A stretch of 51,917 bases of DNA from a virus (lineage: Duplodnaviria > Heunggongvirae > Uroviricota > Caudoviricetes): positions 65,670 through 117,586 of the IMG/VR virus record IMGVR_UViG_3300044950_000141; one strand, given 5' to 3'. Of this stretch, positions 26,853 to 45,742 are shown piece by piece. Position 1 is the stretch's first letter. The number at the start of each line of letters is the position of its first letter. A program made the position numbers and the translations under genes. Under the pieces are notes generated by a model, which did no database searches, was not told the origin of the DNA, and saw only the letters and a program-made list of their open reading frames with translations.

Positions 26853-27671
26853 ATGGAAAAGATATTCTATCAAAGTTCTTTACCAAGAGCAGGTTCAACA
26901 TTGTTACAAAACATATTAGCACAAAACTCAGACATCTATGCTACACCAACTAGTGGTGTTCTTGAGTTAGTGTTTGCAGCTAGAGGAAACTATACAGATA
27001 GTCCTGAGTTCCAAGCTCAAGATCCTGAGATAATGAAGACAGCATTCCAAGCTTTCTGTAGATTTGGTATGGAGGCTTATTACAATGCTATTACAAATAA
27101 GAAATACATTGTAGATAAATCTAGAGGATGGGGAATACATTATGACTTCCTAAACTTTGTTCACCCAGAGCCAAAGATTATATGCATGGTGAGAGACTTA
27201 AGAGATGTATTTGCATCAATGGAAAACAACTATAGAAAGAATCCTGACAAAGCAAATGCCATCCTTAATTGGGCACAGATGCAAGGCACAACAGTTCCAA
27301 AGCGTGTAGACATTTGGGCACAGGGTCAACCTGTAGGACTTGCTATTGAAAGGTTGCAAGAGTTGTTTAGATTAGGCATAGACAAGCATGTTTTATTTGT
27401 AAAGTTTGAAGACTTATGTTTATATCCTGATAGCACAATGGTAAAAATATACGAGTATTTAGGCATACCATATTACCAACATGATTGGGATAACATAGAG
27501 CAAGTAACTAAAGAAGATGATGAAGTGTATGGAAGCTTTGGTGACCATGTAATTCGTACAAAACTTGAACCTGTAAGAAGTAAAGCAAAAGAACTATTAG
27601 GTAAAGATGTTACAGATTGGATTTGGAATAATTATGAATGGTTTTTTAAACAATTTAGATATACAAAATGA
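26853..27671 (+). CDS. PAPS-dependent sulfotransferase
   Basis: 5'-PSB loop SLPRAGSTLL and 3'-PB motif RDLRDVFAS. Confidence 0.85.
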   Translation: MEKIFYQSSLPRAGSTLLQNILAQNSDIYATPTSGVLELVFAARGNYTDSPEFQAQDPEIMKTAFQAFCRFGMEAYYNAITNKKYIVDKSRGWGIHYDFLNFVHPEPKIICMVRDLRDVFASMENNYRKNPDKANAILNWAQMQGTTVPKRVDIWAQGQPVGLAIERLQELFRLGIDKHVLFVKFEDLCLYPDSTMVKIYEYLGIPYYQHDWDNIEQVTKEDDEVYGSFGDHVIRTKLEPVRSKAKELLGKDVTDWIWNNYEWFFKQFRYTK

Positions 27672-28105
27672 TAATAGTTATTTTTGGACAGCCTGCATCA
27701 GGCAAGACAACCCTAGCTAAAAAGTTTATAGAAGAGGGATTCCACCACATAGATGGTGATGAACTAAGAGAGACATTTAAGAACAGTGATTATAGCAGAG
27801 AAGGTAGAATTAAAAATCTAAATAGAGCTAGTGACATAGCTCATTACTTAGATAAGATAAAAGGCTATAATGTAGTGCTTTCATTAGTATATCCTTATGA
27901 AGAAGCTAGACAATACTTTATTAAATTAAACAGAAGTGTTAAATGGATATATCTTATATATCAAGAAGATAGAGGTAGAGATGAATTTAAAGTGGCAGAC
28001 TTTGAGCTTCCACATATGGATAATGTAGAGTTAATTTTAAATACTTCAGTTGATTCAATAGATGTATGTACTGATAAAATTAAAAATGTATGCAGAATAT
28101 TTTAA
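27668..28105 (+). CDS. cysC: Adenylyl-sulfate (APS) kinase, compact
   Basis: P-loop GQPASGKTT, then DGDELR and YSREGRIKN, typical of CysC. Overlaps the sulfotransferase stop (ATGA). Confidence 0.75.
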   Translation: MIIVIFGQPASGKTTLAKKFIEEGFHHIDGDELRETFKNSDYSREGRIKNLNRASDIAHYLDKIKGYNVVLSLVYPYEEARQYFIKLNRSVKWIYLIYQEDRGRDEFKVADFELPHMDNVELILNTSVDSIDVCTDKIKNVCRIF

Positions 28106-28476
28106 CTGAAGGCAATCGTAAGACAGATGGTTATGCTATGTTCATTGGAAGATGGCAACCATGGCACGCTGGACACAGGTGGTTAATTGATCAACAATTG
28201 AACCAGGGAAAGAAGGTGTTACTGTGTATAAGAGATGTTAAGCAGGATGAAAAGAACCCATGGTCTGCTTGGCAGATAATGATGAATCTATCAGAAGAAC
28301 TAATAGATCTTATAGAAGATAACAAAGTGAGACTTATGATTATCCCTGATATTGAGTCTATTAACTTTGGTAGAGGGGTAGGATATGATGTTGTTGAACA
28401 CGTTCCACCACAAGAGATACATGACATCTCAGCTACTCAAATTAGAGAACAAATGAAAGCAGAAGGTAAGTTATGA
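28090..28476 (+). CDS. HxGH class I nucleotidyltransferase (cytidylyltransferase-like); candidate minimal sulfate adenylyltransferase
   Basis: FIGRWQPWHAGH and C-terminal ISATQIRE motifs. Confidence 0.75.
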   Translation: MQNILTEGNRKTDGYAMFIGRWQPWHAGHRWLIDQQLNQGKKVLLCIRDVKQDEKNPWSAWQIMMNLSEELIDLIEDNKVRLMIIPDIESINFGRGVGYDVVEHVPPQEIHDISATQIREQMKAEGKL

Positions 28477-28682
28477 TAGTAGAACGTAAAAGACACATAG
28501 CTAAGACAATCAGTTATAGATTGATAAGCACCCTTATAGGATTTGCTGCAATGCTTGTTGTTACAGGCTCTGTAAAAGCAGGAGCAGCGTTTGGTATAGC
28601 TGAATTACTTTGGAAACCAATACAATATTATTTCCATGAACGTATATGGTATAGATGGATTAAGTATGGACTAAAGCCTTAA
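28473..28682 (+). CDS. DUF2061-like small membrane protein
   Basis: RHIAKTISYRLIST...YYFHERIW pattern with two hydrophobic segments. Confidence 0.75.
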   Translation: MIVERKRHIAKTISYRLISTLIGFAAMLVVTGSVKAGAAFGIAELLWKPIQYYFHERIWYRWIKYGLKP

Positions 28683-29763
28683 CTGCCATAGCAACATCAT
28701 TAACAGAAATACTCTTATGACATTCAAACTGTCTAGGAGTATTTTCATTTTCAGGACACCAGTTCCAATCTCCTTTGTTAAACTTGAACATAGGATTATT
28801 CCAACATCCATTACACACTTCTTTATTAGTTATACGTGTACAATCTTCTTGAAACTCATGGTCTTCTGTAGTGAAGTTAGAGATCATTACAGTGTGCTTA
28901 CATATAGCCCAGTTCAACCAACTGATACCACTAGACAGTCCTATGAACAAATCTGCATGATGTAGATAGTTCATAACGTTCTGTAAACTAGTATCGTCTA
29001 GTTTCTCTGCACCATAGTCATCAGCTTCTTGAGACATCTCAAACACTCTGTATCCCCAGCTTTTTAGTTGCTGAATTAACTCTGGCCAGTAGTACCAATG
29101 TTTACACTGTGCTGTAGATTTTGTAGATATACATATGTATTCATTCACTACAGGTCTTTCTTCTAGTGTAAATGCTATTCTAGGATGTATCTCTTTAAAT
29201 GGTAGGGCTAATATGTTACTTGCTGATTGTTGTAATGGTATAGTGGCAGGATGTGTAGGTTCTTTTTCCTTATCCCAAAACCAACCTAGTTCAACCCTAG
29301 CTTTGATATTCTGTACTATTGTTCCTCTACCTGAAAACTCTAGTTCAGGATATGCACTCTCAAACAAGTCATTCTTGAATGTAGACACAATCACTTTACA
29401 TTTATAAACTTCCTGAAATTGTAAACAGTATGGTATCCAAGCTATGCTATCACCAAGACTCTTAGACTCAAATACAATAAACACCCTCTCACCTTTAAAC
29501 TCATCTAGTAAGTTCACTTGTTTAATTGTACGTCCTTCATACTTAATGAATATAGCTATATCAGATATATACTTTCTACTAAGTCTAGCCCACGCACCTG
29601 GCTTTAGTTTTGTTTCATAGATAGTTACATGTTGATCTGTAAGCATGCCTTCCACCTTACCCTTTCTATCTACAAACTGTATATCATATTCTCTGTTCTT
29701 ACCACCATCCTCTATTAGTTCAAAGAACAAACCATCAACATGGTTTAATTTATATGTTATCAT
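28660..29763 (-). CDS. TibC/Aah-like (autotransporter O-heptosyltransferase family) glycosyltransferase
   Basis: SLGDSIAWIPYCLQFQEVYKCK plus the C-terminal four-Cys motif CNGCWN..WCP..RQFEC of bacterial autotransporter heptosyltransferases. Confidence 0.75.
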   Translation of the reverse strand: MITYKLNHVDGLFFELIEDGGKNREYDIQFVDRKGKVEGMLTDQHVTIYETKLKPGAWARLSRKYISDIAIFIKYEGRTIKQVNLLDEFKGERVFIVFESKSLGDSIAWIPYCLQFQEVYKCKVIVSTFKNDLFESAYPELEFSGRGTIVQNIKARVELGWFWDKEKEPTHPATIPLQQSASNILALPFKEIHPRIAFTLEERPVVNEYICISTKSTAQCKHWYYWPELIQQLKSWGYRVFEMSQEADDYGAEKLDDTSLQNVMNYLHHADLFIGLSSGISWLNWAICKHTVMISNFTTEDHEFQEDCTRITNKEVCNGCWNNPMFKFNKGDWNWCPENENTPRQFECHKSISVNDVAMAVKALVHT

Positions 29764-30763
29764 ATGCGTTTATATATAATTGTTTTGTCTTTTCTGATGT
29801 ATATCCTTCATTGATCTTCAACACATTTTCATAGTATTTATGTAATGTCTTAGCTACATTGTCCCAGCTATAACTATTACGTACAGTTAGCATCTCTTGT
29901 CTTCTATGTTCATATGTCTTAATTGTCTCTGTAATGCCATGCATTACACTCTCTGTGCTAATGTTTGGTAACACCCACATACCAGGGAAGTGTTTAGATC
30001 CTCTATAAGTTCCTACAATAGGAATACATACACTAGCTGCTTCACATAATGTTAGATTGGGATGTCCTGCTTCTAGCATAGATGGATGTAAGAAGATGCT
30101 ATGATCCTGATACAGTTCTTTCATTTCTTCATCTGTAGGATTTGTTAACTTTAAAGTTAACTTTTTATAATTCAATAACTCTATATGGATATCAAAGAAC
30201 TTCTGATTGTCAGTATGTCCAGCAATAGTGATAGGTAGATCTAATTCTCTAGCTGCTTCTATACCATATCTAAATCCTTTTCTATCAAACCCTGAGTCAC
30301 CTGCTAATCCATTGTTAGCTATCATCAATAGTTTATGTGGACCCATTCTATAGTCTGGTGTAAAGAATTCTGTGTTAGCCCCATGTCTTAGATAGAACAA
30401 CTTATCAGTCTCACTGAAGTAGTCTATTAGATACTCAGCATGTGTAAAAGATATAATGCTATTCTTCATAGCCTCTAGATTTTGCTTATACACCCAGCTA
30501 TCTTTACCATACCATTCTGTATGATGATCATGTAGAGAGTATACATAAGGTATACCTTTGTCTCTACAATACAAAGCCTGGTTAGCTAGATGTGTATGTA
30601 CAATTGTATCTGGCCATTTCTCTAGCTCATTCATATATTTGATGTCTACAACATCTCCTAGCTTTTCAAGGGATTGTTTATATTCCCATGTAAGTCTTTC
30701 TACAGCTCCCCATCCATTTGGTGGTATAGTTATAAGCCCTGTAGCTACGTGTACTATTCTCAT
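29750..30763 (-). CDS. Glycosyltransferase family 4 (GT-B)
   Basis: IPPNGWGAVE N-terminal motif and FLHPSMLEAGHPNLTLCEA (E-x7-E-like). Confidence 0.8.
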   Translation of the reverse strand: MRIVHVATGLITIPPNGWGAVERLTWEYKQSLEKLGDVVDIKYMNELEKWPDTIVHTHLANQALYCRDKGIPYVYSLHDHHTEWYGKDSWVYKQNLEAMKNSIISFTHAEYLIDYFSETDKLFYLRHGANTEFFTPDYRMGPHKLLMIANNGLAGDSGFDRKGFRYGIEAARELDLPITIAGHTDNQKFFDIHIELLNYKKLTLKLTNPTDEEMKELYQDHSIFLHPSMLEAGHPNLTLCEAASVCIPIVGTYRGSKHFPGMWVLPNISTESVMHGITETIKTYEHRRQEMLTVRNSYSWDNVAKTLHKYYENVLKINEGYTSEKTKQLYINAYDNI

Positions 30764-33414
30764 TTTCTAAATGTTTTTTGCATGTTGTCTATTAAGGAAA
30801 ATCCATCTGCTTGTGTGGTAAGTCTCTTCTTCACAATACCCATTCTATCTCCTGCAAAGATATTATTAAAATACATATCAGCAGCATCCCACTTGTGCAT
30901 TCTTAAAGTTTCTTTTAACCATGGAGCTACATGTGCAGGGAACATGATACATTGTAAACCTATAATATGATTTGTAACATACATGTCATTGTTCACTTCT
31001 TTGACAACAGGACTTTGTGGCCAGCCATATTCTAATGTATCTTTATCTCCAAAGGACATGTATTCTATTCCATTCTCTATAAGCTTAGTTGCACACTCTT
31101 CTACAGTCTTAATGAACTCTTCAATAGGTGCCTCAATGATACAATCACCTTCACACACTATCAAGTAGTCACAGTTATTGAATTCACTCAAGATAGCATT
31201 CTTGAATGCTTCATAGCATCCATAATGTGCTGGGGTAAGTGCAGTGCCATGTTGTTGAACTTGTTGTTCATTGAAGAGTTCCATTGAAACACAACTGGGT
31301 CTGAGACAGTTATATGATGGTGGTAATGATTTATAGGGCTCGTTAATGTGTAACTTATATTCCCATCCATGGTTGATAACTTCAATAAGGGAGTCTCTGC
31401 TAGCTTTTTCTCTTTCATCATTTAATGTGGTTTGTATGTGAACTAATTTAATCTTTGGTCTATCTTTCTTCTTCCATTCAAATTTACCAGTTTTCTGATA
31501 TTTATGAATAGTATCTGCATTCATTTCAAACTTTTCTTTCTTATATATTCTATCTCCATCATAACATGACATTTCTATTACATTATTTCCTGTGTATTCA
31601 AACTCATGTTTAAATTCTCTTGTTGTAGAAATATCTATCTTCATCATATATTCTCCAATCTTAACCCAAAATATTCTATCATCTACATTATATGTAAAGA
31701 AATAGAACATATACCAATCAGGCTTTCCAGTAACAGGAAGTATAGAATAATACTCGCTATTAGATGCAACACCTAATCCACTGTGTATCAACAATGTTTG
31801 ATCAGCATTAGTAACTAATTGTATATCATTTGGATTGAAACTAAATACCACCTTAGCTAAATAGTCTTCTAGATAGTTCTCACACTTTCTTCTCTTACAT
31901 ACAGCATCCCATTCATCAGGTGTACGTACATCATCAAATTCTTTTACAAAGAAGTCTACATCAAACATCATTCCATTGGTTTGAATTCCTTTTCCTTGAG
32001 ATGTATTAACTATACCTAAATAAGCTTTCTTGTCTGTATTAAAGGATTCATTAATAACACCTAAGTCTTTCTCATTTACAACTACATCATATGTGTTATA
32101 GAATGCACGTTTGTATCCTAGATCTTGAGCAGCTTTGAATCCATTATATAAGTTAGTAAGTACAGTGAGAGACTGATTACTATATTTCAATCCATTGATA
32201 TTCACCTCAGCATAATAGTCATCTGTATGTCTATAGAATCTGCTGTAATAAGAATGATGTGTTAATGGATTATGTGCATCGTACACATAGTGATCCACCA
32301 TACGTTGTATCTCCTCGTCCACAGGATAGTGACTGATTAACATGATGTTTCTACCTAAGGCTTTCATAGAGTTGATAGTATCCTTAGTTAATTGTGCACG
32401 AGATTTTAAATTAGGATAGGTGCCTATGATGATAAGTTCTTCATCTTTCTTATCAAGGTTTAATTTTTTGATGATATTAGTAGCATCACTACCAATATCT
32501 CCAGTTAAATAAACCATATTCTCTGCATCATTATACTTGTTACAATATACATCTAGGTTGTACATTACTTTGATCAAGTCATCATATTCCATAGCTTCTT
32601 TAATAGCAATAGGATTTAACTCCTTGTTACCTCTGTCTCCTTTAGATGGGAAGAAGAATACATCAGAAGCTTCTAAGAACATGTCTACATCATCTCGCTC
32701 ACCCCACACAACACAGTTGTCTGGTTTGTTAGCCATCAAGGGCTTCCAATATGATTCAAAGTTACCAGCTTGGTTACCTAGGAAATGAAACTTAACCTTG
32801 TAGTTCTTAAGTCTTTCTGCTAGTTGGAATGCATAAGCTTGATTCTTTCTAGGTGTAAACAACCCTACAGTTACAAAGTGTTTATAGTCATGCTCTAATC
32901 CTAACTTTTCTCTTATAGCATACTGGTTTCTTTCTTTCTTGTTTACAGGATACTCAATCACTTCTGTAGGTACATTTAATGTAATGTATTGAAATGAATT
33001 ATATGAGCTAACAAATATAAACTTGTCAGGCAAATAGTATTTGTTTTTAGGATTGAATGAACTATCATGTGTAGTTTCTACAATCTTCCATGGCTTCTCT
33101 GCATCGTATAGATAGTCAGCACATTCTTCATTCATAAACATCTCTGGAAACTCTTCCATAGAGATTACATCTGGTTTGAACTCTTGCAGAACTTGCAACA
33201 GTTCATCATATTTATTCTCTCCTAGTGAATGGAAGTTCTGATCTCCCACTAGTTTAATTATTCTATTTCTTTGCACAACAAACTGCCATGCTAGGAATGC
33301 ATACTCTACCACCTTGATATCAAAGTCATTCTGTAGTAGTTCTACTTTGTTTACTGTTACCTGGGGTGCTCCTCCTGTTGATAGATGAGGAGTGATGATT
33401 AATAGTTTCTTCAT
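30760..33414 (-). CDS. Multidomain glycosyltransferase (N-terminal GT4, central unknown domain, C-terminal GT-A/GT25-like)
   Basis: ITPHLSTGGAPQ, VGLFTPRKNQ and SDVFFFPS..ELNPIAIKEA; C-terminal HYGCYEAF..LIVCEGDC. Confidence 0.75.
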   Translation of the reverse strand: MKKLLIITPHLSTGGAPQVTVNKVELLQNDFDIKVVEYAFLAWQFVVQRNRIIKLVGDQNFHSLGENKYDELLQVLQEFKPDVISMEEFPEMFMNEECADYLYDAEKPWKIVETTHDSSFNPKNKYYLPDKFIFVSSYNSFQYITLNVPTEVIEYPVNKKERNQYAIREKLGLEHDYKHFVTVGLFTPRKNQAYAFQLAERLKNYKVKFHFLGNQAGNFESYWKPLMANKPDNCVVWGERDDVDMFLEASDVFFFPSKGDRGNKELNPIAIKEAMEYDDLIKVMYNLDVYCNKYNDAENMVYLTGDIGSDATNIIKKLNLDKKDEELIIIGTYPNLKSRAQLTKDTINSMKALGRNIMLISHYPVDEEIQRMVDHYVYDAHNPLTHHSYYSRFYRHTDDYYAEVNINGLKYSNQSLTVLTNLYNGFKAAQDLGYKRAFYNTYDVVVNEKDLGVINESFNTDKKAYLGIVNTSQGKGIQTNGMMFDVDFFVKEFDDVRTPDEWDAVCKRRKCENYLEDYLAKVVFSFNPNDIQLVTNADQTLLIHSGLGVASNSEYYSILPVTGKPDWYMFYFFTYNVDDRIFWVKIGEYMMKIDISTTREFKHEFEYTGNNVIEMSCYDGDRIYKKEKFEMNADTIHKYQKTGKFEWKKKDRPKIKLVHIQTTLNDEREKASRDSLIEVINHGWEYKLHINEPYKSLPPSYNCLRPSCVSMELFNEQQVQQHGTALTPAHYGCYEAFKNAILSEFNNCDYLIVCEGDCIIEAPIEEFIKTVEECATKLIENGIEYMSFGDKDTLEYGWPQSPVVKEVNNDMYVTNHIIGLQCIMFPAHVAPWLKETLRMHKWDAADMYFNNIFAGDRMGIVKKRLTTQADGFSLIDNMQKTFRK

Positions 33415-34340
33415 ATGTTATTGTTAATTGCGTGAATCACCTGCTCTACAGATGGATGACACTCATAAGCTTCTTTCTTCTCTAAGCATCCAATCAGTGG
33501 CTGTACAGAGTCTATTGTAGGCCAATACTCAAGAGCATATTTCATATTGGATGAACAGTGTAATCCACATGCTCCTCTTACGTATATATGTTTGCTAGTC
33601 TTTCTACGTGGTCTACGAAACTCTGGGTTGATAGGAGATCCTAATTCAATTATAGGTGTTTCTGTTGTACCTGCTAAATGTAGGATACCTGAGTCCATTG
33701 TAATTACAACTGCAGCATCGTTAATCAGATGCCAGCTCTCAGAGATAGATGTTTGATTCATTAGATTGATAACATTTTGATTATCAATATCATGTACAGG
33801 TTTGTTTACATTAAAGAATCCTGTCTCAGAACTATCCTTACCTATAGCCACCACTTTGTATCCCCACTTCACTAACTCTTCAGATAGCTTTAGCCAGTTC
33901 TCTTGTGACCATGTTCTATTAGGCCAGCTGTTAACAGGATGTATTACAGCATACTTCTCATGTACAAAGTTCTTCTTAGGTTCTGTAGGTTTGTAATAAC
34001 ATTCTAGTTCATCTTCTCCAAGCATAAAGCCTAGGTGTATGGCATGAAACTGTCTGATGTCCATCATGTTATGCTTCATCTCCACACCACGCTCGTCCTT
34101 CTTACCTACTAGATAGAATGAATTATGTACAATGTAATTACTTTGTATGTACGTCATGTCTATAGAACTAGCTTTATAGCTCTTCTCTACATAGGGATTC
34201 GTTTTAAATAGCTCAGGCATCTGAGAGATGACAGTAATCTTTCTTTGATATGCATCATGTAGTTTCTTAATGGTGGGGGTGGCACATATCAGGTCTCCCA
34301 AACCATTACATTCTTCTAAGTTTAAGCAAACTGGTTTCAT
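33411..34340 (-). CDS. Glycosyltransferase family 9-like with C-terminal Cys cluster
   Basis: GLGDLICATPTIKKL, DSGILHLAG and CGLHC..C..EC. Confidence 0.8.
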   Translation of the reverse strand: MKPVCLNLEECNGLGDLICATPTIKKLHDAYQRKITVISQMPELFKTNPYVEKSYKASSIDMTYIQSNYIVHNSFYLVGKKDERGVEMKHNMMDIRQFHAIHLGFMLGEDELECYYKPTEPKKNFVHEKYAVIHPVNSWPNRTWSQENWLKLSEELVKWGYKVVAIGKDSSETGFFNVNKPVHDIDNQNVINLMNQTSISESWHLINDAAVVITMDSGILHLAGTTETPIIELGSPINPEFRRPRRKTSKHIYVRGACGLHCSSNMKYALEYWPTIDSVQPLIGCLEKKEAYECHPSVEQVIHAINNNI

Positions 34341-34981
34341 TGTATTGACATTAAAAAATCAGGAGTTGTATAGTCTCTTTTAACTGTTGTATATCCTAGT
34401 CTAGCTAAGAAATTTACAGCTGTACTTGTATTGTCCTCTAACCATATTAGAGGCTTATCTCTTTGTATTAATTTTATCATTCCTTCAAAAGCAGACATCT
34501 CATGACCCTCAATATCTATCTTGATAAACTTAACAGGCTCATCAAACCATACATCATCTAGAGCTAAGACAATGTTCTTATGTGCTCCATTAGGTACAAT
34601 CTTTACCACACCACTGTTGGAACCATGTCCATCATCAAATGAAACAATAGATGTTCTACTACCCACTCCTACATTTATTGCAGATACATCCTTGTATCTT
34701 TTTGTGTTTTGCTTTAGAACAGAATAGTTATCTGGATGTGGTTCAAATGCTATAATCTTTAAGTTAGGGAAGTGGTGTTTAAATTGTACACAATGTCCTC
34801 CTATATTAGCCCCAATATCTAACATTAGTCCTGTAGAAGGGAAATGTTCTTTCCAATCATTAAATAACTGAAATTCCCAGAAATCATTGTATTTAACTAT
34901 GTCATCTGAGATACATTCAGGACTCTCAAATATAACCATAGGTGTATTGTGAATACTTACTATCCTAGTTTCTCGTTTCAT
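34337..34981 (-). CDS. FkbM-family SAM-dependent methyltransferase
   Basis: LDIGANIGGH, FEPHP and IKIDIEGHE. Confidence 0.9.
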   Translation of the reverse strand: MKRETRIVSIHNTPMVIFESPECISDDIVKYNDFWEFQLFNDWKEHFPSTGLMLDIGANIGGHCVQFKHHFPNLKIIAFEPHPDNYSVLKQNTKRYKDVSAINVGVGSRTSIVSFDDGHGSNSGVVKIVPNGAHKNIVLALDDVWFDEPVKFIKIDIEGHEMSAFEGMIKLIQRDKPLIWLEDNTSTAVNFLARLGYTTVKRDYTTPDFLMSIQ

Positions 34982-38375: not shown

Positions 38376-38405
38376 TTGTTAATATTAAAAAGTAACATAT
38401 CTTTG
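38376..38405 (+). promoter_or_regulatory. Promoter of the poly-Thr / glycosyltransferase operon
   Basis: TTG (38376-78) N19 TATCTTTG (38398-405). Confidence 0.7.
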
Positions 38406-38424
38406 AACATTAATTTTTTATATC

Positions 38425-38595
38425 ATGGCAATACCATCAAGACAGATAGGTTGGAGTACAACAGATAACTTGCTTTGGCAGATATCTAAGCAATTAGAAT
38501 ATTTGACACAAGTAACAGCTAATTGTTGTCCTACAACAACTACCACAACTACAGTAGCACCAACAACTACTACTACGACTACACCTGCTCCTTAA
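38425..38595 (+). CDS. Small protein with CC motif and poly-Thr tail, 56 aa (not in ORF track)
   Basis: Hand translation MAIPSRQIGWSTTDNLLWQISKQLEYLTQVTANCCPTTTTTTTVAPTTTTTTTPAP. First gene after the promoter. Confidence 0.8.
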   Translation: MAIPSRQIGWSTTDNLLWQISKQLEYLTQVTANCCPTTTTTTTVAPTTTTTTTPAP

Positions 38596-38621
38596 TAAAG
38601 AGAAACCAACAAACTACATAT

Positions 38622-39638
38622 ATGAAGGATCTTAAATTTATCTGTGCACAGCCAGATGATGTATACTACACATGGCAGGTACATCTATGGTTGGAAAGTT
38701 TAAAGAAGCTTGGGCACTCAGACAAAGCAATTGTTTTAGTGTACACACCTAGTTTCAGAGAATATAATGGTAAATGGGAGAAGATAATGGAGCTGTATCC
38801 AGAAGCACAATTTGCTTTCTACAAGGATACAGGAGATGTTAGTCAGTATTTAGGAGTATATATTCCTATTCTACGTCCTTATTGCTTAATGAGATATTTC
38901 CAGGACAATCCTGAGATGGTATCCAAAGCAGTTTTTTATTGTGATTGTGATGTAATCTTCACAGAAAAGTTTGATATAGATAAATTTAAAGATGATGATA
39001 TAAACTACTTGTCTGATACAAACAGTTATATCAACGCTTCATATTTTGATAGTAAAGACAGAGATGTTCTACCAGACAAACTGGAAGAGTATAAGACTAG
39101 AGATGTCTTAGCTGAGCTTACAAGCTTAGTGGGTATAACAAGAGAGATAGCTGAAGCTAACAATGATCATTCAGGAGGAGCTCAATACTTCCTTAAAAAT
39201 ATAGACAGTGAGTTTTGGAAGAAGGTGATGAATGACTGTATATTAATACGTGTCTACCTTCAGAATATAAACAAACAGTTCTTCAAAAATGAAGACAAAG
39301 GGTTCCAAAGCTGGTGTGCAGATATGTGGGCTGTGCTATGGAACGTTTGGCTTAGAGAGAAAGAAACAAAGAACATTCCTGAATTGGAATTCTGTTGGTC
39401 TTCAGATCCTATAGAGAAGCTAGATAGAACAACATTGTTACATAATGCAGGGATTACAGGACAGAACACAATGGGTTATCCTGCCTTTTATAAAGGAGCA
39501 TATCACGCTGGTAAAGATCCTTTTAAAGATACACAACTATATGTAGTACGCACTGATGAGAAGTCTAAGAAATATGCAACTCATTACTATGTAAAACAAC
39601 TATTAGAAATAAAAAACAAATATAATATAAATTATTAA
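38622..39638 (+). CDS. GT-A glycosyltransferase resembling peptidyl-Hyp/Ser O-glycosyltransferases (HPAT GT95 / SERGT1 GT96-like)
   Basis: DDVYYTWQVHLW, YIPILRPYCLMRYF and DxD motif DCD (38943-38951). The start is reassigned from 38523 to 38622. Confidence 0.6.
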   Translation: MKDLKFICAQPDDVYYTWQVHLWLESLKKLGHSDKAIVLVYTPSFREYNGKWEKIMELYPEAQFAFYKDTGDVSQYLGVYIPILRPYCLMRYFQDNPEMVSKAVFYCDCDVIFTEKFDIDKFKDDDINYLSDTNSYINASYFDSKDRDVLPDKLEEYKTRDVLAELTSLVGITREIAEANNDHSGGAQYFLKNIDSEFWKKVMNDCILIRVYLQNINKQFFKNEDKGFQSWCADMWAVLWNVWLREKETKNIPELEFCWSSDPIEKLDRTTLLHNAGITGQNTMGYPAFYKGAYHAGKDPFKDTQLYVVRTDEKSKKYATHYYVKQLLEIKNKYNINY

Positions 39639-39640
39639 TT

Positions 39641-39928
39641 ATGGCCCAGAATACTAATCGCCCTCTCAAAGCTTATGTACGCTTTGATGGTACTGGAAGA
39701 ATCGTTCCAAGCAGCCTAATCTTAAGAAGAAAGAAACCCAAGGTTGGTAAGTGGGTAGAGATCCCAGCTTATGAATGTTGCAATTACGTTCCTACAACAA
39801 CTACTACAACCAGTAGTACAAGCACTAGCACAACTACTAGTACATCTACTAGCACAAGTACAAGTACAACAACAACTACTACGACTGCTACTCCAACAAC
39901 AACAACAACAACAACTCCTGCACCTTAA
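39641..39928 (+). CDS. Small protein with ECC motif and long poly-Thr/Ser tail
   Basis: N-terminal ~50 aa domain paralogous to the next gene, then a ~45-residue T/S tail ending PAP. Confidence 0.85.
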   Translation: MAQNTNRPLKAYVRFDGTGRIVPSSLILRRKKPKVGKWVEIPAYECCNYVPTTTTTTSSTSTSTTTSTSTSTSTSTTTTTTTATPTTTTTTTPAP

Positions 39929-39940
39929 AATTAAATAAAC

Positions 39941-40747
39941 ATGGCAAATAGCAACAATAGATTAAAAGCATATGTACGTTACGATGGTACAGGACGTGTC
40001 ATAGCAGGTAGCTTGATCTTACAAAGATTCAAACCACAAGTGGGTAATTGGGTGGAGATAGATGCAAATGAGTGTTGTAATTATGTTCCAACAACCACTA
40101 CAACTACGTCTTCTACTAGTACTAGTACAAGCACTTCTACAAGCACTTCTACAAGTACTACAACAAGTACATCTACTTCTACAAGTACAAGCACTTCTAC
40201 AAGTACAACAACAACAACAACAACAGCTGCACCAGCAGAATGTCCTGAAGATTATACAATTGGTCAAGCTGCATTAGGTGGTAAAATTGCATACATCCTA
40301 CAATCAGGTGACCCAGGATATGATTCAAATTTACAACAAGGATTAGTAGCTACAATAGCAGATATTTCAACAGGTGCACAGTGGGGATGTTTTGGAACAG
40401 CAATTGCAGGAGCAGATGGTACAGCTATTGGTACTGGTAATCAAAATACTATAGATATTATGGCTGGTTGTGCTACAGCAGGTATTGCAGCTAGACTTTG
40501 TGGTGATTTAGTTCAGGGAGGATATTCTGATTGGTATTTACCTAGTCAAGATGAATTAAATAAATTATACCTAAATAGAGTAGCTATTGGTGGTTTTACG
40601 AATAACGGCTATTGGAGTTCTACGGAGTACGCCACCATCTTCGCGTGGGACCAGAATTTCCTCACTGGCAGTCAGGACGGCAGCGATAAGACCTTCCCAA
40701 ACTATGTTCGCGCCATTAGGGCTTTTGCATGTACAATTCCTAGATAA
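39941..40747 (+). CDS. Anchor domain + poly-Thr/Ser stalk + DUF1566 (Lcl/C-type-lectin-fold) domain; putative DGR target
   Basis: GYSDWYLPSQDELNKLY..YWSSTE..AW..NF..YVRAIRAF is the DUF1566/CLec pattern. Confidence 0.8.
   Translation: MANSNNRLKAYVRYDGTGRVIAGSLILQRFKPQVGNWVEIDANECCNYVPTTTTTTSSTSTSTSTSTSTSTSTTTSTSTSTSTSTSTSTTTTTTTAAPAECPEDYTIGQAALGGKIAYILQSGDPGYDSNLQQGLVATIADISTGAQWGCFGTAIAGADGTAIGTGNQNTIDIMAGCATAGIAARLCGDLVQGGYSDWYLPSQDELNKLYLNRVAIGGFTNNGYWSSTEYATIFAWDQNFLTGSQDGSDKTFPNYVRAIRAFACTIPR
40598..40726 (+). other. Putative diversity-generating retroelement variable region (VR)
   Basis: About 52% GC with 10 CpG in 129 nt (hand count) in an AT-rich, CpG-poor genome. NNC/NNT codons occur at the positions that are AAY in canonical TRs. 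Confidence 0.7.
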
Positions 40748-40762
40748 TAAAACTAAAACAGC

Positions 40763-41167
40763 ATGGCAAAATCATTATTCCCTGATGAGATGATGAAATC
40801 AGGAGAATTAAACTTGGAAACAATAGCTGGGAAGCTTACATATTTCCATGAGCAACTACATCTATTGCATTGGCAGACAACTAGTTATGCACAGCACAAG
40901 GCTCTTGGAAAGTTATATGAATATGTACAAGATTTTAAAGATGGTGTTGTTGAGAAGCTTATGGGTTATACAGGTAAACGTCCTGGTGCAATTAAACTAG
41001 AACAATTAACAGCTACAGATCCTAATGCAGTTGTCACAGCACTAATGGACTTCTCTAGTAACTTAAAAGCATATGGTGAGACTAATAAATTTCATGATAT
41101 AGCTAATTTAGCTGATGCCTTAAGTGGTGAAGCTGCAAAAACTAAATACTTATTAACCTTGTCTTAA
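40763..41167 (+). CDS. Ferritin/Dps-like four-helix protein (DUF5856-like)
   Basis: HEQLHLLHWQTTSYAQHKALGKLYE..D..VEKLMG. Confidence 0.8.
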   Translation: MAKSLFPDEMMKSGELNLETIAGKLTYFHEQLHLLHWQTTSYAQHKALGKLYEYVQDFKDGVVEKLMGYTGKRPGAIKLEQLTATDPNAVVTALMDFSSNLKAYGETNKFHDIANLADALSGEAAKTKYLLTLS

Positions 41168-43787: not shown

Positions 43788-43821
43788 AAAAAAGCCTCCC
43801 TTAAAAAAGGAGGCTTTTTTT
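43788..43821. terminator. Bidirectional intrinsic terminator at the convergence of the two genome arms
   Basis: A6-GCCTCC-loop-GGAGGC-T7. Confidence 0.9.
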
Positions 43822-44356
43822 ATGATACTAATGAATTGTATACAGATAGTATCTTGTTTATGTAATGTTTATTCTTTGCTTTTTTATAACAGTTCTCAGC
43901 AAATACACCATCAGCATCTCTCCTTGATAGAACAAATCTTTCTTGATTCACTATAGATGTATGTACAATGAAGTTATGGCTATCTACATAGCTTAACTTA
44001 ATTATGTTTCCATACAATCTATGTACACCACTGTTCCACAGTTGATCAAATGATATAAAATCATTGTTTAAGTCTTTGATATTGTCCCACAACTCTGGAT
44101 GCATAGTTGTATCATCATCGTTGAAATATATCCAACCCTCTGTTACTAGATTAATTGCTAGGTTTCTTTGTGCATTTCCACATACGCTTTTTACATCCTT
44201 TATACAATAAGCTTCACATTCAGGAATATCAGTTGGAATAGTCTCTGAATCAAACACAACAATCCATCTGTAATTTTCTTTAGGTATGTTAATGCTTTCT
44301 GCAATTCTATGTAAAAAATGAGGTCTACTACAAGGAGTGATAATATTTAAGAACAT
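43820..44356 (-). CDS. GT-A fold glycosyltransferase (family 2-like), short
   Basis: IITPCSR, GNAQRNLAIN and YFNDDD. Confidence 0.75.
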   Translation of the reverse strand: MFLNIITPCSRPHFLHRIAESINIPKENYRWIVVFDSETIPTDIPECEAYCIKDVKSVCGNAQRNLAINLVTEGWIYFNDDDTTMHPELWDNIKDLNNDFISFDQLWNSGVHRLYGNIIKLSYVDSHNFIVHTSIVNQERFVLSRRDADGVFAENCYKKAKNKHYINKILSVYNSLVS

Positions 44357-45000
44357 GGTTTGTCATTTCTATGTAAAACTAAAAGCTTATCATTGTCCCA
44401 ACCTGGAGAAAACTTTAACTCATGATTAGCCATAATAAATGTAGCAGATGAGAAGTATTCTTTAATGTGATCCATGGCTTCCATGTATCTGTTTTCATCT
44501 TCTCTAAGGAAGATATCTTCGATGATGATTATACCTCCTGGCTTAACACATTTGTATGCTATGTTTAAAAATCTAATCTGATCTTCAAACACGTGTGTAG
44601 AATCTTCTATGATTATGTCAAAGAAGTTATTTTTGTTGAACACATTGTTAAGAGACTGTTCACTGGTAACATCTACATGAGTGTATGTAGCATTGTTAAG
44701 ATTATCACGTATTCCTTTTTGCAACTTATCATCATGATATTCATAACCAAACAATGTTGCATTAGGGAAGTACTCTCTCCAACATAACATAGAATGATTA
44801 TCTAATATACCCACTTCACCTATTGTAATCTCTTTGTAACGAAGATTTGAAAACAATAAGTTATATATGGAAGTGTAAGCATGTCTATGTAAATGAGGAT
44901 GGTTATGATAAGGACACTTGTCTGTAGGATACTTAACAGCAAGTTTACACAAGTCTGTATTAGAATGTGTAGAGTCAATACTTAGTCTATTTATTTGCAT
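44347..45000 (-). CDS. Class I SAM-dependent methyltransferase (sugar O-methyltransferase-like)
   Basis: EVGI..S...WREYFPNA, FDIIIEDSTH and KPGGIIIIEDI. Confidence 0.8.
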   Translation of the reverse strand: MQINRLSIDSTHSNTDLCKLAVKYPTDKCPYHNHPHLHRHAYTSIYNLLFSNLRYKEITIGEVGILDNHSMLCWREYFPNATLFGYEYHDDKLQKGIRDNLNNATYTHVDVTSEQSLNNVFNKNNFFDIIIEDSTHVFEDQIRFLNIAYKCVKPGGIIIIEDIFLREDENRYMEAMDHIKEYFSSATFIMANHELKFSPGWDNDKLLVLHRNDKPCS

Positions 45001-45742
45001 TGATAAAATCTTTTAACAATTCTGAATAATCTTTATCCCAATGAGGATTTAGTTTAACTTCTCCTGTAGGAATCTTTCCTAAACGTCTTTCAGATTCAAT
45101 GTGAGCACTGTGTCTTTGTATAGCATTGAGTTTTTTAGGATGGTCTGTACCTTCTCCACTCATGTGGTATCCTCTTCCTCCCCACATGTAAAACCAGCTA
45201 GCTTCTTCTTTAGGTGGAGTAGCAAATAGTCTACCTCCATGTTTATGTAGTCTTTCAATGAAAGTCATATCATATCCAGCATTTTCAAGAGGATGTCCCC
45301 CTATTGCTTTCCAAGCTGCTTTTCTAAACACAAGACCAGAATTACCTATCCAACCAACTTGCTCAATACCTGTAATGTGACACAACACACCTATTTGCCA
45401 ATGAAGTATGTTAACTTCTTCTGTCATGTATTTAGCTACATTCTTTAAATGGTGTGGTAGAGCTACGTCATCATCGTCCCATTGACATATAATATCTCCT
45501 TGACACAGTTCTGTAGCAAAGTTTTCTTTCTCTCCTATGGTCTCAAAGGTCTTAACTAGGTTAACTATCTTAACTTGAGGATGCTCAAATATAAGAGTTT
45601 GTAAGGCATAGTCATTTACTATGATAAGTTCGCACTTATCTGCAGGGTAGTCCTGCTTGAGGAAAGACTCAATGCTCTCCTCAAGCGTACTAACCCTTCC
45701 ATAAGTTATACACTTACATGATATAAATGGATGTGAGTTCAT
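44987..45742 (-). CDS. Glycosyltransferase family 2
   Basis: ITYGR..LEESIESFLKQDY..ELIIVND and QWDDDD. Confidence 0.85.
   Translation of the reverse strand: MNSHPFISCKCITYGRVSTLEESIESFLKQDYPADKCELIIVNDYALQTLIFEHPQVKIVNLVKTFETIGEKENFATELCQGDIICQWDDDDVALPHHLKNVAKYMTEEVNILHWQIGVLCHITGIEQVGWIGNSGLVFRKAAWKAIGGHPLENAGYDMTFIERLHKHGGRLFATPPKEEASWFYMWGGRGYHMSGEGTDHPKKLNAIQRHSAHIESERRLGKIPTGEVKLNPHWDKDYSELLKDFINANK

Follow-up and report, generated by a model that had tools for sequence, protein, structure and literature searches.

The DNA analyzed here is a 51,917-nt stretch of a tailed-phage genome (Caudoviricetes; IMG/VR record IMGVR_UViG_3300044950_000141), hereafter called the window, which covers bases 65670-117586 of the complete 117,586-bp virus record. 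It carries a gene for a 338-amino-acid (aa) glycosyltransferase, flanked by three small genes whose products contain polythreonine (poly-Thr) or Thr/Ser tracts (Table 1). Our results indicate that this enzyme is probably a phage-encoded priming protein O-glycosyltransferase, encoded together with its acceptors, the Thr/Ser tracts. An earlier note on this DNA had described a 56-aa poly-Thr protein, a DxD glycosyltransferase, and two poly-Thr/Ser proteins in this order, and all four genes were found at the positions given there.

Coupling of the Enzyme to Polythreonine Tracts

Runs of at least six ACN codons were found in only four open reading frames (ORFs) of the complete genome. Three of these adjoin the enzyme gene, so the arrangement is not a matter of chance. 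The fourth ORF lies outside the window and codes for a 1583-aa virion structural protein, which contains one internal tract (TTTTTSSTT) and, close to the C-terminus, two poly-Thr tracts, the last of which follows CTDC. This protein is homologous to Cellulophaga and Flavobacterium phage proteins annotated as structural or virion structural. Together with the type of promoter described below, this homology points to a host of the Flavobacteriia type.

The same arrangement was conserved in the close relatives of the phage. The closest relatives of the enzyme are 67-97% identical and are located on metagenomic viral contigs of 100-119 kb. In all of the 80 related loci that were fetched through the enzyme protein with 6-kb flanks, poly-Thr ORFs were present beside the enzyme on the same strand, typically with one upstream and one or two downstream, and only two tracts lay more than 1.5 kb from the enzyme. 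Tract length, the number of acceptor genes, and the payload domains varied freely among these loci.

Enzyme homologues with 22-36% identity were detected in 77 of 50,697 phage records. Nine distant lineages were examined, namely Enterococcus phages phiFL1A and Planchet, Staphylococcus phage PMBT8, Lacticaseibacillus phage R3.3, Lactobacillus phages PLE3 and Semele, Clostridium phage phiCTP1, Arcanobacterium phage TPWB06, and Chryseobacterium phage MA9V-3. The gene immediately upstream of the enzyme contained a poly-Thr tract in all nine, and it usually coded for a capsid or tail-tube protein. Further tracts in these lineages were observed at the C-termini of major capsid, major tail or tail-tube, portal, and protease proteins.

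Two matched contrasts suggest that the enzyme and the tails are gained and lost together. In phiFL1A, the enzyme is present and both the capsid and the tail-tube proteins carry poly-Thr tails. The Streptococcus phages Javan570, P9, and Javan46 have a module syntenic with that of phiFL1A and capsids that are 60-69% identical, whereas they have neither the enzyme nor the poly-Thr tails; their capsid and tail-tube alignments stop where the phiFL1A tails start, and short Gly-rich tails are found there instead. Similarly, the capsid and tail-tube proteins of PLE3 both end in TTTTTTTSK tails, while Latilactobacillus phage TMW 1.1447 P1, with a capsid 53% identical to that of PLE3, has no enzyme within its 17-kb module and lacks these tails.

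The C-termini of the enzyme-less Streptococcus proteins are themselves distinctive. All three capsids have Pro/Gly-rich ends (…PGVGG, …PGIGG, and …PGAVPGG). The Javan570 tail tube ends in …PGVGG, that of Javan46 has SSPGAVPE near its end, and that of P9 is without such an end. That two structural proteins share a similar C-terminal tag may point to some other kind of modification or processing.

The association was also examined in the reverse direction, in 118 viral contigs or loci (about 1 Mb) for which a stretch of nine ACN codons was the only selection criterion. The enzyme was present in the fetched flank of nine of them, a rate that exceeds the base rate of 77 in 50,697 by roughly two orders of magnitude, and in the five examined closely it directly adjoined the tract and had the same orientation. 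In the IMG/VR contigs L094, L120, L138, L144, and L165, members of the enzyme family were located directly downstream of genes for proteins of 558-2069 aa with several poly-Thr tracts, which suggests that acceptors can be as small as 45-aa peptides or as large as giant fibre-like proteins. Co-occurrence with poly-Thr genes across phage genomes, which the earlier note had proposed to check, was thus observed within the lineage, across the nine distant lineages, in the two matched contrasts, and in the reverse direction.

Sequence Family of the Enzyme

The enzyme belongs to phrog_4417, a family without an annotated function (E = 6.4e-56, residues 4-321 against profile positions 1-287 of 293). 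No Pfam family matched the enzyme at E <= 1, and a profile search of the PDB sequences gave no meaningful match. The family is a large one, as a search of 1.84 billion proteins gave at least 774 matching cluster representatives (E <= 0.001). Longer proteins carry the domain as a fusion with GT2, GT32, GT6, methyltransferase, and radical-SAM domains. Across 64 homologues, which range down to about 31% identity, D108 and D110 of the DCD motif, H274, K291, and a few aromatic residues were invariant. The DxD motif claimed in the earlier note is therefore confirmed, with both of its aspartates conserved in all 64 homologues. No hydrophobic or transmembrane segment was found in the enzyme, the maximum 19-residue hydropathy being 0.71.

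These conserved residues bear on whether the protein is an active enzyme. It could be a catalytically inactive protein with a glycosyltransferase fold that attaches to poly-Thr tails, perhaps in the manner of a chaperone, without transferring sugar, since the family has no curated annotation and the enzyme activity is a predicted one. However, the invariance of the DxD aspartates, H274, and K291 among homologues as distant as these, and the repeated fusion of the domain to other sugar-modifying enzyme domains, make such a role extremely unlikely.

Predicted Fold and Nature of the Acceptor

A single-sequence AlphaFold2 run reached a predicted local distance difference test (pLDDT) score of only 37.7 and was replaced by a model built on the 64-sequence alignment, which had a pLDDT of 97.3, a predicted template modeling (pTM) score of 0.93, and a GT-A fold. 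In the Foldseek comparison with the Swiss-Prot models, the best match was the Arabidopsis peptidyl-serine alpha-galactosyltransferase SGT1 (E = 1.5e-9), followed by HPAT1-3, PLENTY, RDN1/2, and NOD3, with template modeling (TM) scores of 0.58-0.62. The SGT1 and HPAT matches (E = 1.5e-9 to 1e-6, identity 12-14%) extended across residues 2-332 and ranked ahead of the GT8 enzymes, and the structural alignment began past the N-terminal 60-70 residues of the plant enzymes. A search of the AlphaFold clusters returned direct homologues first and then HPAT-like domain proteins, GT8, and DUF7164, with the HPAT-like proteins dominating the named matches. Among the solved structures, the best matches were WbbM, glycogenin, alpha-1,3-galactosyltransferase, and UGGT (E about 5e-6, TM 0.40-0.46).

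The Foldseek comparison with GT95 and GT96 proposed in the earlier note thus placed SGT1 and the HPATs at the top of the Swiss-Prot structural matches. The likeness to HPAT and SERGT1 enzymes that the note had read from short motifs holds for the fold but not for the sequence, as the Pfam HPAT model PF23452 gave only a weak match to 2 of the 64 homologues (best E = 0.012) and none to the enzyme itself. At E <= 10, PF23452 matched nothing in the genome or in four phage records positive for the glycosyltransferase, a weak result because the controls were also silent. Two of the three features on which the note had staked its proposal, similarity to protein O-glycosyltransferases (here at the level of the fold) and co-occurrence with Thr/Ser-tailed genes, were observed. 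According to the model, the enzyme folds and probably works like the GT95 and GT96 enzymes without being a member of these families. The term "mucin-type" used in the note is an analogy, and the enzyme is not a GT27 ppGalNAc-transferase.

HPAT (GT95) and SGT1 (GT96) are GT-A enzymes of plants and algae that add the first sugar to hydroxy-amino acids of repetitive, low-complexity proteins; in extensin-type motifs, they attach arabinofuranose to Hyp or galactose to Ser. They share the GT-A fold and DxD motif with the phage enzyme and are its closest named structures. However, the plant enzymes have a type II membrane (Golgi) anchor, which the phage enzyme lacks, and the latter would act in a cytoplasmic bacterial setting. 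The acceptors also differ, with Ser-Hyp4 extensin motifs in plants and poly-Thr/Ser without Ser-Pro4 motifs in the phage candidates. The GT8 enzymes (glycogenin, LgtC/WaaO, GAUT, galactinol synthase), GT6, and UGGT are similar in having a DxD motif and a conserved downstream His, and they provide the top solved-structure matches; glycogenin and UGGT also act on proteins or glycoproteins. This group differs in its lower TM scores, in the absence of a Pfam Glyco_transf_8 match, and in its rank below HPAT and SGT1 in the Swiss-Prot model search.

The fold and the coupling together bear on what is glycosylated. We regard it as highly unlikely that the enzyme acts on something other than protein (for example, host cell-wall polysaccharide, lipid-linked sugars, or phage DNA), with the tracts serving as flexible linkers without modification and the genes standing side by side because they are expressed late together. 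According to a review (PMC12619734), many phage glycosyltransferases do act on DNA or host surface glycans. The window also contains seven other glycosyltransferase-like genes to which no targets are assigned, and the GT8-like folds among the Swiss-Prot matches include lipopolysaccharide glycosyltransferases such as WaaO. But a non-protein acceptor leaves unexplained both the joint gain and loss of the enzyme and the capsid and tail-tube poly-Thr tails in matched phages and the direct proximity of the enzyme to a poly-Thr gene in ten genomic contexts that are unrelated to each other, and the best fold matches are peptide-directed enzymes.

Candidate Acceptor Proteins

The 56-aa protein encoded upstream of the enzyme ends in ...NCCPTTTTTTTVAPTTTTTTTPAP. 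Its family is kept upstream of the enzyme in the relatives, where 60 unique variants have the common motif SKQLEYLTQVTAN followed by a Thr run. The first downstream protein, of 95 aa, has the pattern ...ECCNYVPTTTTTT(S/T)n...TTTTTTTPAP, with nothing after the tract. In the 268-aa protein, the Thr/Ser tract is likewise preceded by ECCNYVP and is followed by AAPAECPEDY, which leads into a C-terminal domain. This domain was identified as Lcl_C (PF07603, residues 138-260; E = 4.2e-11, 43.6 bits against a Pfam cut-off of 34.9), and the protein as a whole matched phrog_4245 (E = 8.5e-26). The two downstream proteins are paralogues, as the earlier note had claimed, with 71% identity across the 48-residue N-terminal domain. 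The Thr/Ser tracts of both genes are made of imperfect repeats of 6-24 nt.

The earlier note had also observed that a Cys-Cys pair precedes all of the tails. This is true of the three tails in the window, but it was rejected as a general rule. The motif W.EI.A.ECCN was present in 58 of 73 unique variants of the downstream family, whereas a Cys-Cys pair preceded the tail in only 1 of the 60 unique variants of the upstream small-protein family. Cluster look-ups with the 56-aa protein and with the 50-residue N-terminal domain returned unnamed, virus-only clusters. These N-terminal domains may serve as virion anchors of the stalks.

At the end of the Lcl_C domain, a segment of some 40 codons (40598-40739) has a G+C content of 52.5%, compared with about 35-40% around it. 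An earlier suspicion that this segment is the variable region of an active diversity-generating retroelement is not supported, as the complete genome contains neither a second copy of the segment nor a reverse transcriptase.

If the tracts are glycosylated, the three small proteins could still be something other than virion decorations, for example assembly chaperones, soluble decoys, or proteins that work on or at the surface of the host during infection. They have no recognizable capsid- or tail-binding domain, and their genes directly follow the lysis genes, outside the head or tail module. In the other lineages examined, however, all of the tracts found are on proteins annotated for the virion or for head assembly (capsid, tail tube, portal, head maturation protease, and an Ig-like "major tail protein"). 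The fourth tract-bearing protein of the present genome is a virion structural protein, and the lectin-like payload of the 268-aa protein suits an exposed position. A role away from the virion is therefore considered unlikely.

Proposed Mechanism

Taken together, these results favor a priming protein O-glycosyltransferase that is encoded with its own acceptors. As a soluble cytoplasmic GT-A enzyme with a DxD motif, it would probably be metal-dependent and retaining. With a nucleotide sugar as donor, most likely a UDP-hexose, it would place the first sugar on the hydroxyls of the dense Thr/Ser tracts; both the UDP-hexose donor and the retention of configuration are plausible by analogy with the GT8, GT95, and GT96 neighbors. 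We infer that the acceptors are the three flanking proteins and the poly-Thr tracts of the 1583-aa virion structural protein. The other glycosyltransferases, the methyltransferases, and the sulfotransferase of the genome may take over from there, lengthening the glycans and capping them. Stiff, hydrophilic glycosylated stalks would result; two proteins would consist of the stalk only and one would carry the Lcl_C lectin-like domain at the stalk end, and these stalk proteins are probably exposed on the virion.

Several findings weigh against this explanation. The 80 related loci represent one lineage and are not independent. In the reverse direction, 109 of the 118 random poly-Thr loci had no enzyme in the fetched flank, which indicates that poly-Thr tracts also exist without the enzyme or that the enzyme is encoded far away. 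PF23452 does not match the enzyme in Pfam at E <= 1, which leaves homology to the plant peptide O-glycosyltransferases unproven. The N-terminal domains of the three small proteins match no known family, and these proteins are only candidate virion components. Finally, a literature search found no biochemical evidence for any member of the enzyme family.

Gene Organization and Other Glycan-Related Genes

The four genes are packed tightly on the plus strand at 38425-40747, with intergenic gaps of 26, 2, and 12 nt. For the enzyme gene, a longer TTG-initiated frame from 38523 would overlap the 56-aa gene; the relatives are also 338 aa long and align from residue 1, which supports the ATG at 38622 as the correct start. 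A Bacteroidota-type promoter-like motif, TTG-N19-TATCTTTG, is located 20 nt before the first ATG, inside a 108-nt intergenic gap. It is one of nine plus-strand matches to this pattern in 52 kb, and a sigma-70 scan showed no enrichment. The earlier note had assigned a single promoter to the unit. The motif is indeed present at that site, but the unit probably runs past 40747, where the note had ended it, since the next gene begins after a gap of 15 nt in which no terminator-like site was found. This gene (40763-41167) codes for a DUF5856/Dps-like (phrog_858) protein and probably shares the transcription unit with the 268-aa gene.

Table 1. Positions of the enzyme, the candidate acceptors, and other features discussed in the text (window coordinates unless stated otherwise).
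Feature	Position	Strand	Description
Promoter-like motif, Bacteroidota type	38376..38405	+	TTG-N19-TATCTTTG; pattern scan; putative
56-aa protein, candidate acceptor	38425..38595	+	~35-residue N-terminal segment, then TTTTTTTVAPTTTTTTTPAP; tract about 38530-38583
338-aa soluble GT-A glycosyltransferase, candidate priming protein O-glycosyltransferase	38622..39638	+	DCD at residues 108-110; phrog_4417; predicted fold
95-aa protein, candidate acceptor	39641..39928	+	50-residue N-terminal domain, ECCNYVP, 42-residue Thr/Ser tract (about 39791-39916), PAP
268-aa protein, candidate acceptor with binding payload	39941..40747	+	N-terminal domain (39941-40090), 46-residue Thr/Ser stalk (about 40088-40225), Lcl_C/DUF1566 domain (about 40352-40720)
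1583-aa virion structural protein, likely fourth acceptor	genome 50712-55463, outside the window		phrog_37948, E = 7e-103; poly-Thr runs
Sulfotransferase, APS-kinase-like, and nucleotidyltransferase-like genes	26853..28476	+	Pfam
Five-gene cluster: GT9-like, GT4, 883-aa GT4-containing protein, GT9, FkbM methyltransferase	28660..34981	-	Pfam
GT2-methyltransferase-GT2 trio	43820-45742		
Streptococcus phage capsid and tail-tube genes	L211 20040-20924, 22308-22910; L212 20046-20933; L213 19998-20894, 22261-22893		Pro/Gly-rich C-termini

Apart from the enzyme, the window contains two GT9-like and two GT4-type genes. The minus-strand five-gene cluster may code for glycan-extending and capping enzymes of the stalk system, and accessory sulfate capping by the sulfotransferase group is possible. 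These accessory genes were compared in five complete relatives, all of which had been fetched through the enzyme and are hence enzyme-positive. The sulfotransferase was present in two of the five and one GT9 was clearly present in two, while the 883-aa protein was reduced to its N-terminal 290 residues in three. A fixed enzyme with varying accessory genes fits a constant priming step followed by variable extension, as in surface-polysaccharide loci. Three very large plus-strand ORFs (at least 4070, 1653, and 2631 aa) occupy positions 3-25241, before the glycosylation genes, and the 2631-aa product has weak tail-fibre matches.

The variation among relatives also allows a broader and more tentative picture, which we consider rather doubtful as a whole. 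The stalk proteins would form a modular "glyco-stalk" display, each with an anchor domain, a poly-Thr/Ser stalk, and an optional payload such as the lectin-like Lcl_C domain found here. The priming enzyme would be constant and the elaboration strain-variable, in some strains including a sulfotransferase dependent on 3'-phosphoadenosine 5'-phosphosulfate, and the result would be a mucin-like, possibly sulfated virion coat that differs between close relatives.

Comparison With Described Systems

The earlier note knew of no described phage system of this type. The novelty is narrower than this, as virion glycosylation in mycobacteriophages, the nearest described system, is of the same general kind (PMC12619734). 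There, glycosyltransferases encoded by the phage modify its own proteins, and capsid and tail-tube subunits bear the glycans on C-terminal extensions (Freeman et al., 2023, Cell Host Microbe, as cited in PMC12619734 and PMC13313380). The present system is similar in combining a phage-encoded glycosyltransferase with Ser/Thr-rich extensions on virion proteins, as one of the four tract proteins here is a virion structural protein, and the Firmicutes relatives of the enzyme adjoin capsid and tail-tube tails. It differs in several respects. The hosts are of the Bacteroidota type and Firmicutes rather than Actinobacteria. The enzyme belongs to phrog_4417, has an HPAT/SGT1-like predicted fold, and may represent another family than the mycobacteriophage enzymes. 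The candidate acceptors are near-pure poly-Thr runs predicted from the genes. The tracts are on three stalk proteins of 56-268 aa and the 1583-aa structural protein, with no capsid or tail-tube tails among the four tract ORFs (the capsid gene itself was not identified).

The serine-rich-repeat (SRR) adhesins of Gram-positive bacteria are glycosylated by GtfA/GtfB and extending glycosyltransferases. Glycosylation of Ser/Thr-rich disordered regions has also been reported in streptococci (PMC12041528). These systems resemble the present one in having a priming glycosyltransferase gene beside a Ser/Thr-rich substrate, followed by variable extending enzymes. However, their priming enzymes are cellular GT-B (GT4) or membrane-bound GT-C/GT2 proteins, whereas the phage enzyme is a GT-A protein of another family. 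No account of this enzyme family, or of phage poly-Thr tags, turned up in a search of the literature, from whose coverage subscription journals were mostly absent. The novelty thus narrows to an undescribed enzyme family and its poly-Thr tag, together with a distinctive stalk-protein variant.

Implications

If the proposed function is correct, many phages, among them some that infect Enterococcus, Staphylococcus, lactic acid bacteria, Clostridium, and freshwater Bacteroidota, make their own O-glycoproteins, and they do so with a small, easily recognized enzyme and a threonine run as a simple genetic tag. It would help to annotate thousands of "hypothetical" genes, and the enzyme and tag would offer a compact cytoplasmic O-glycosylation tool for glyco-engineering. 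It would also bear on phage therapy, through clearance and antibody recognition, and be relevant to dairy phage biology. To this, the window adds a variant in which separate stalk proteins, one of them topped by a lectin-like head, carry the tags and are accompanied by a variable set of glycan-modifying genes. Should the glyco-stalk coat prove to exist, it would be the first mucin-like glycoprotein layer and contain the first sulfated glycoprotein described for a bacteriophage.

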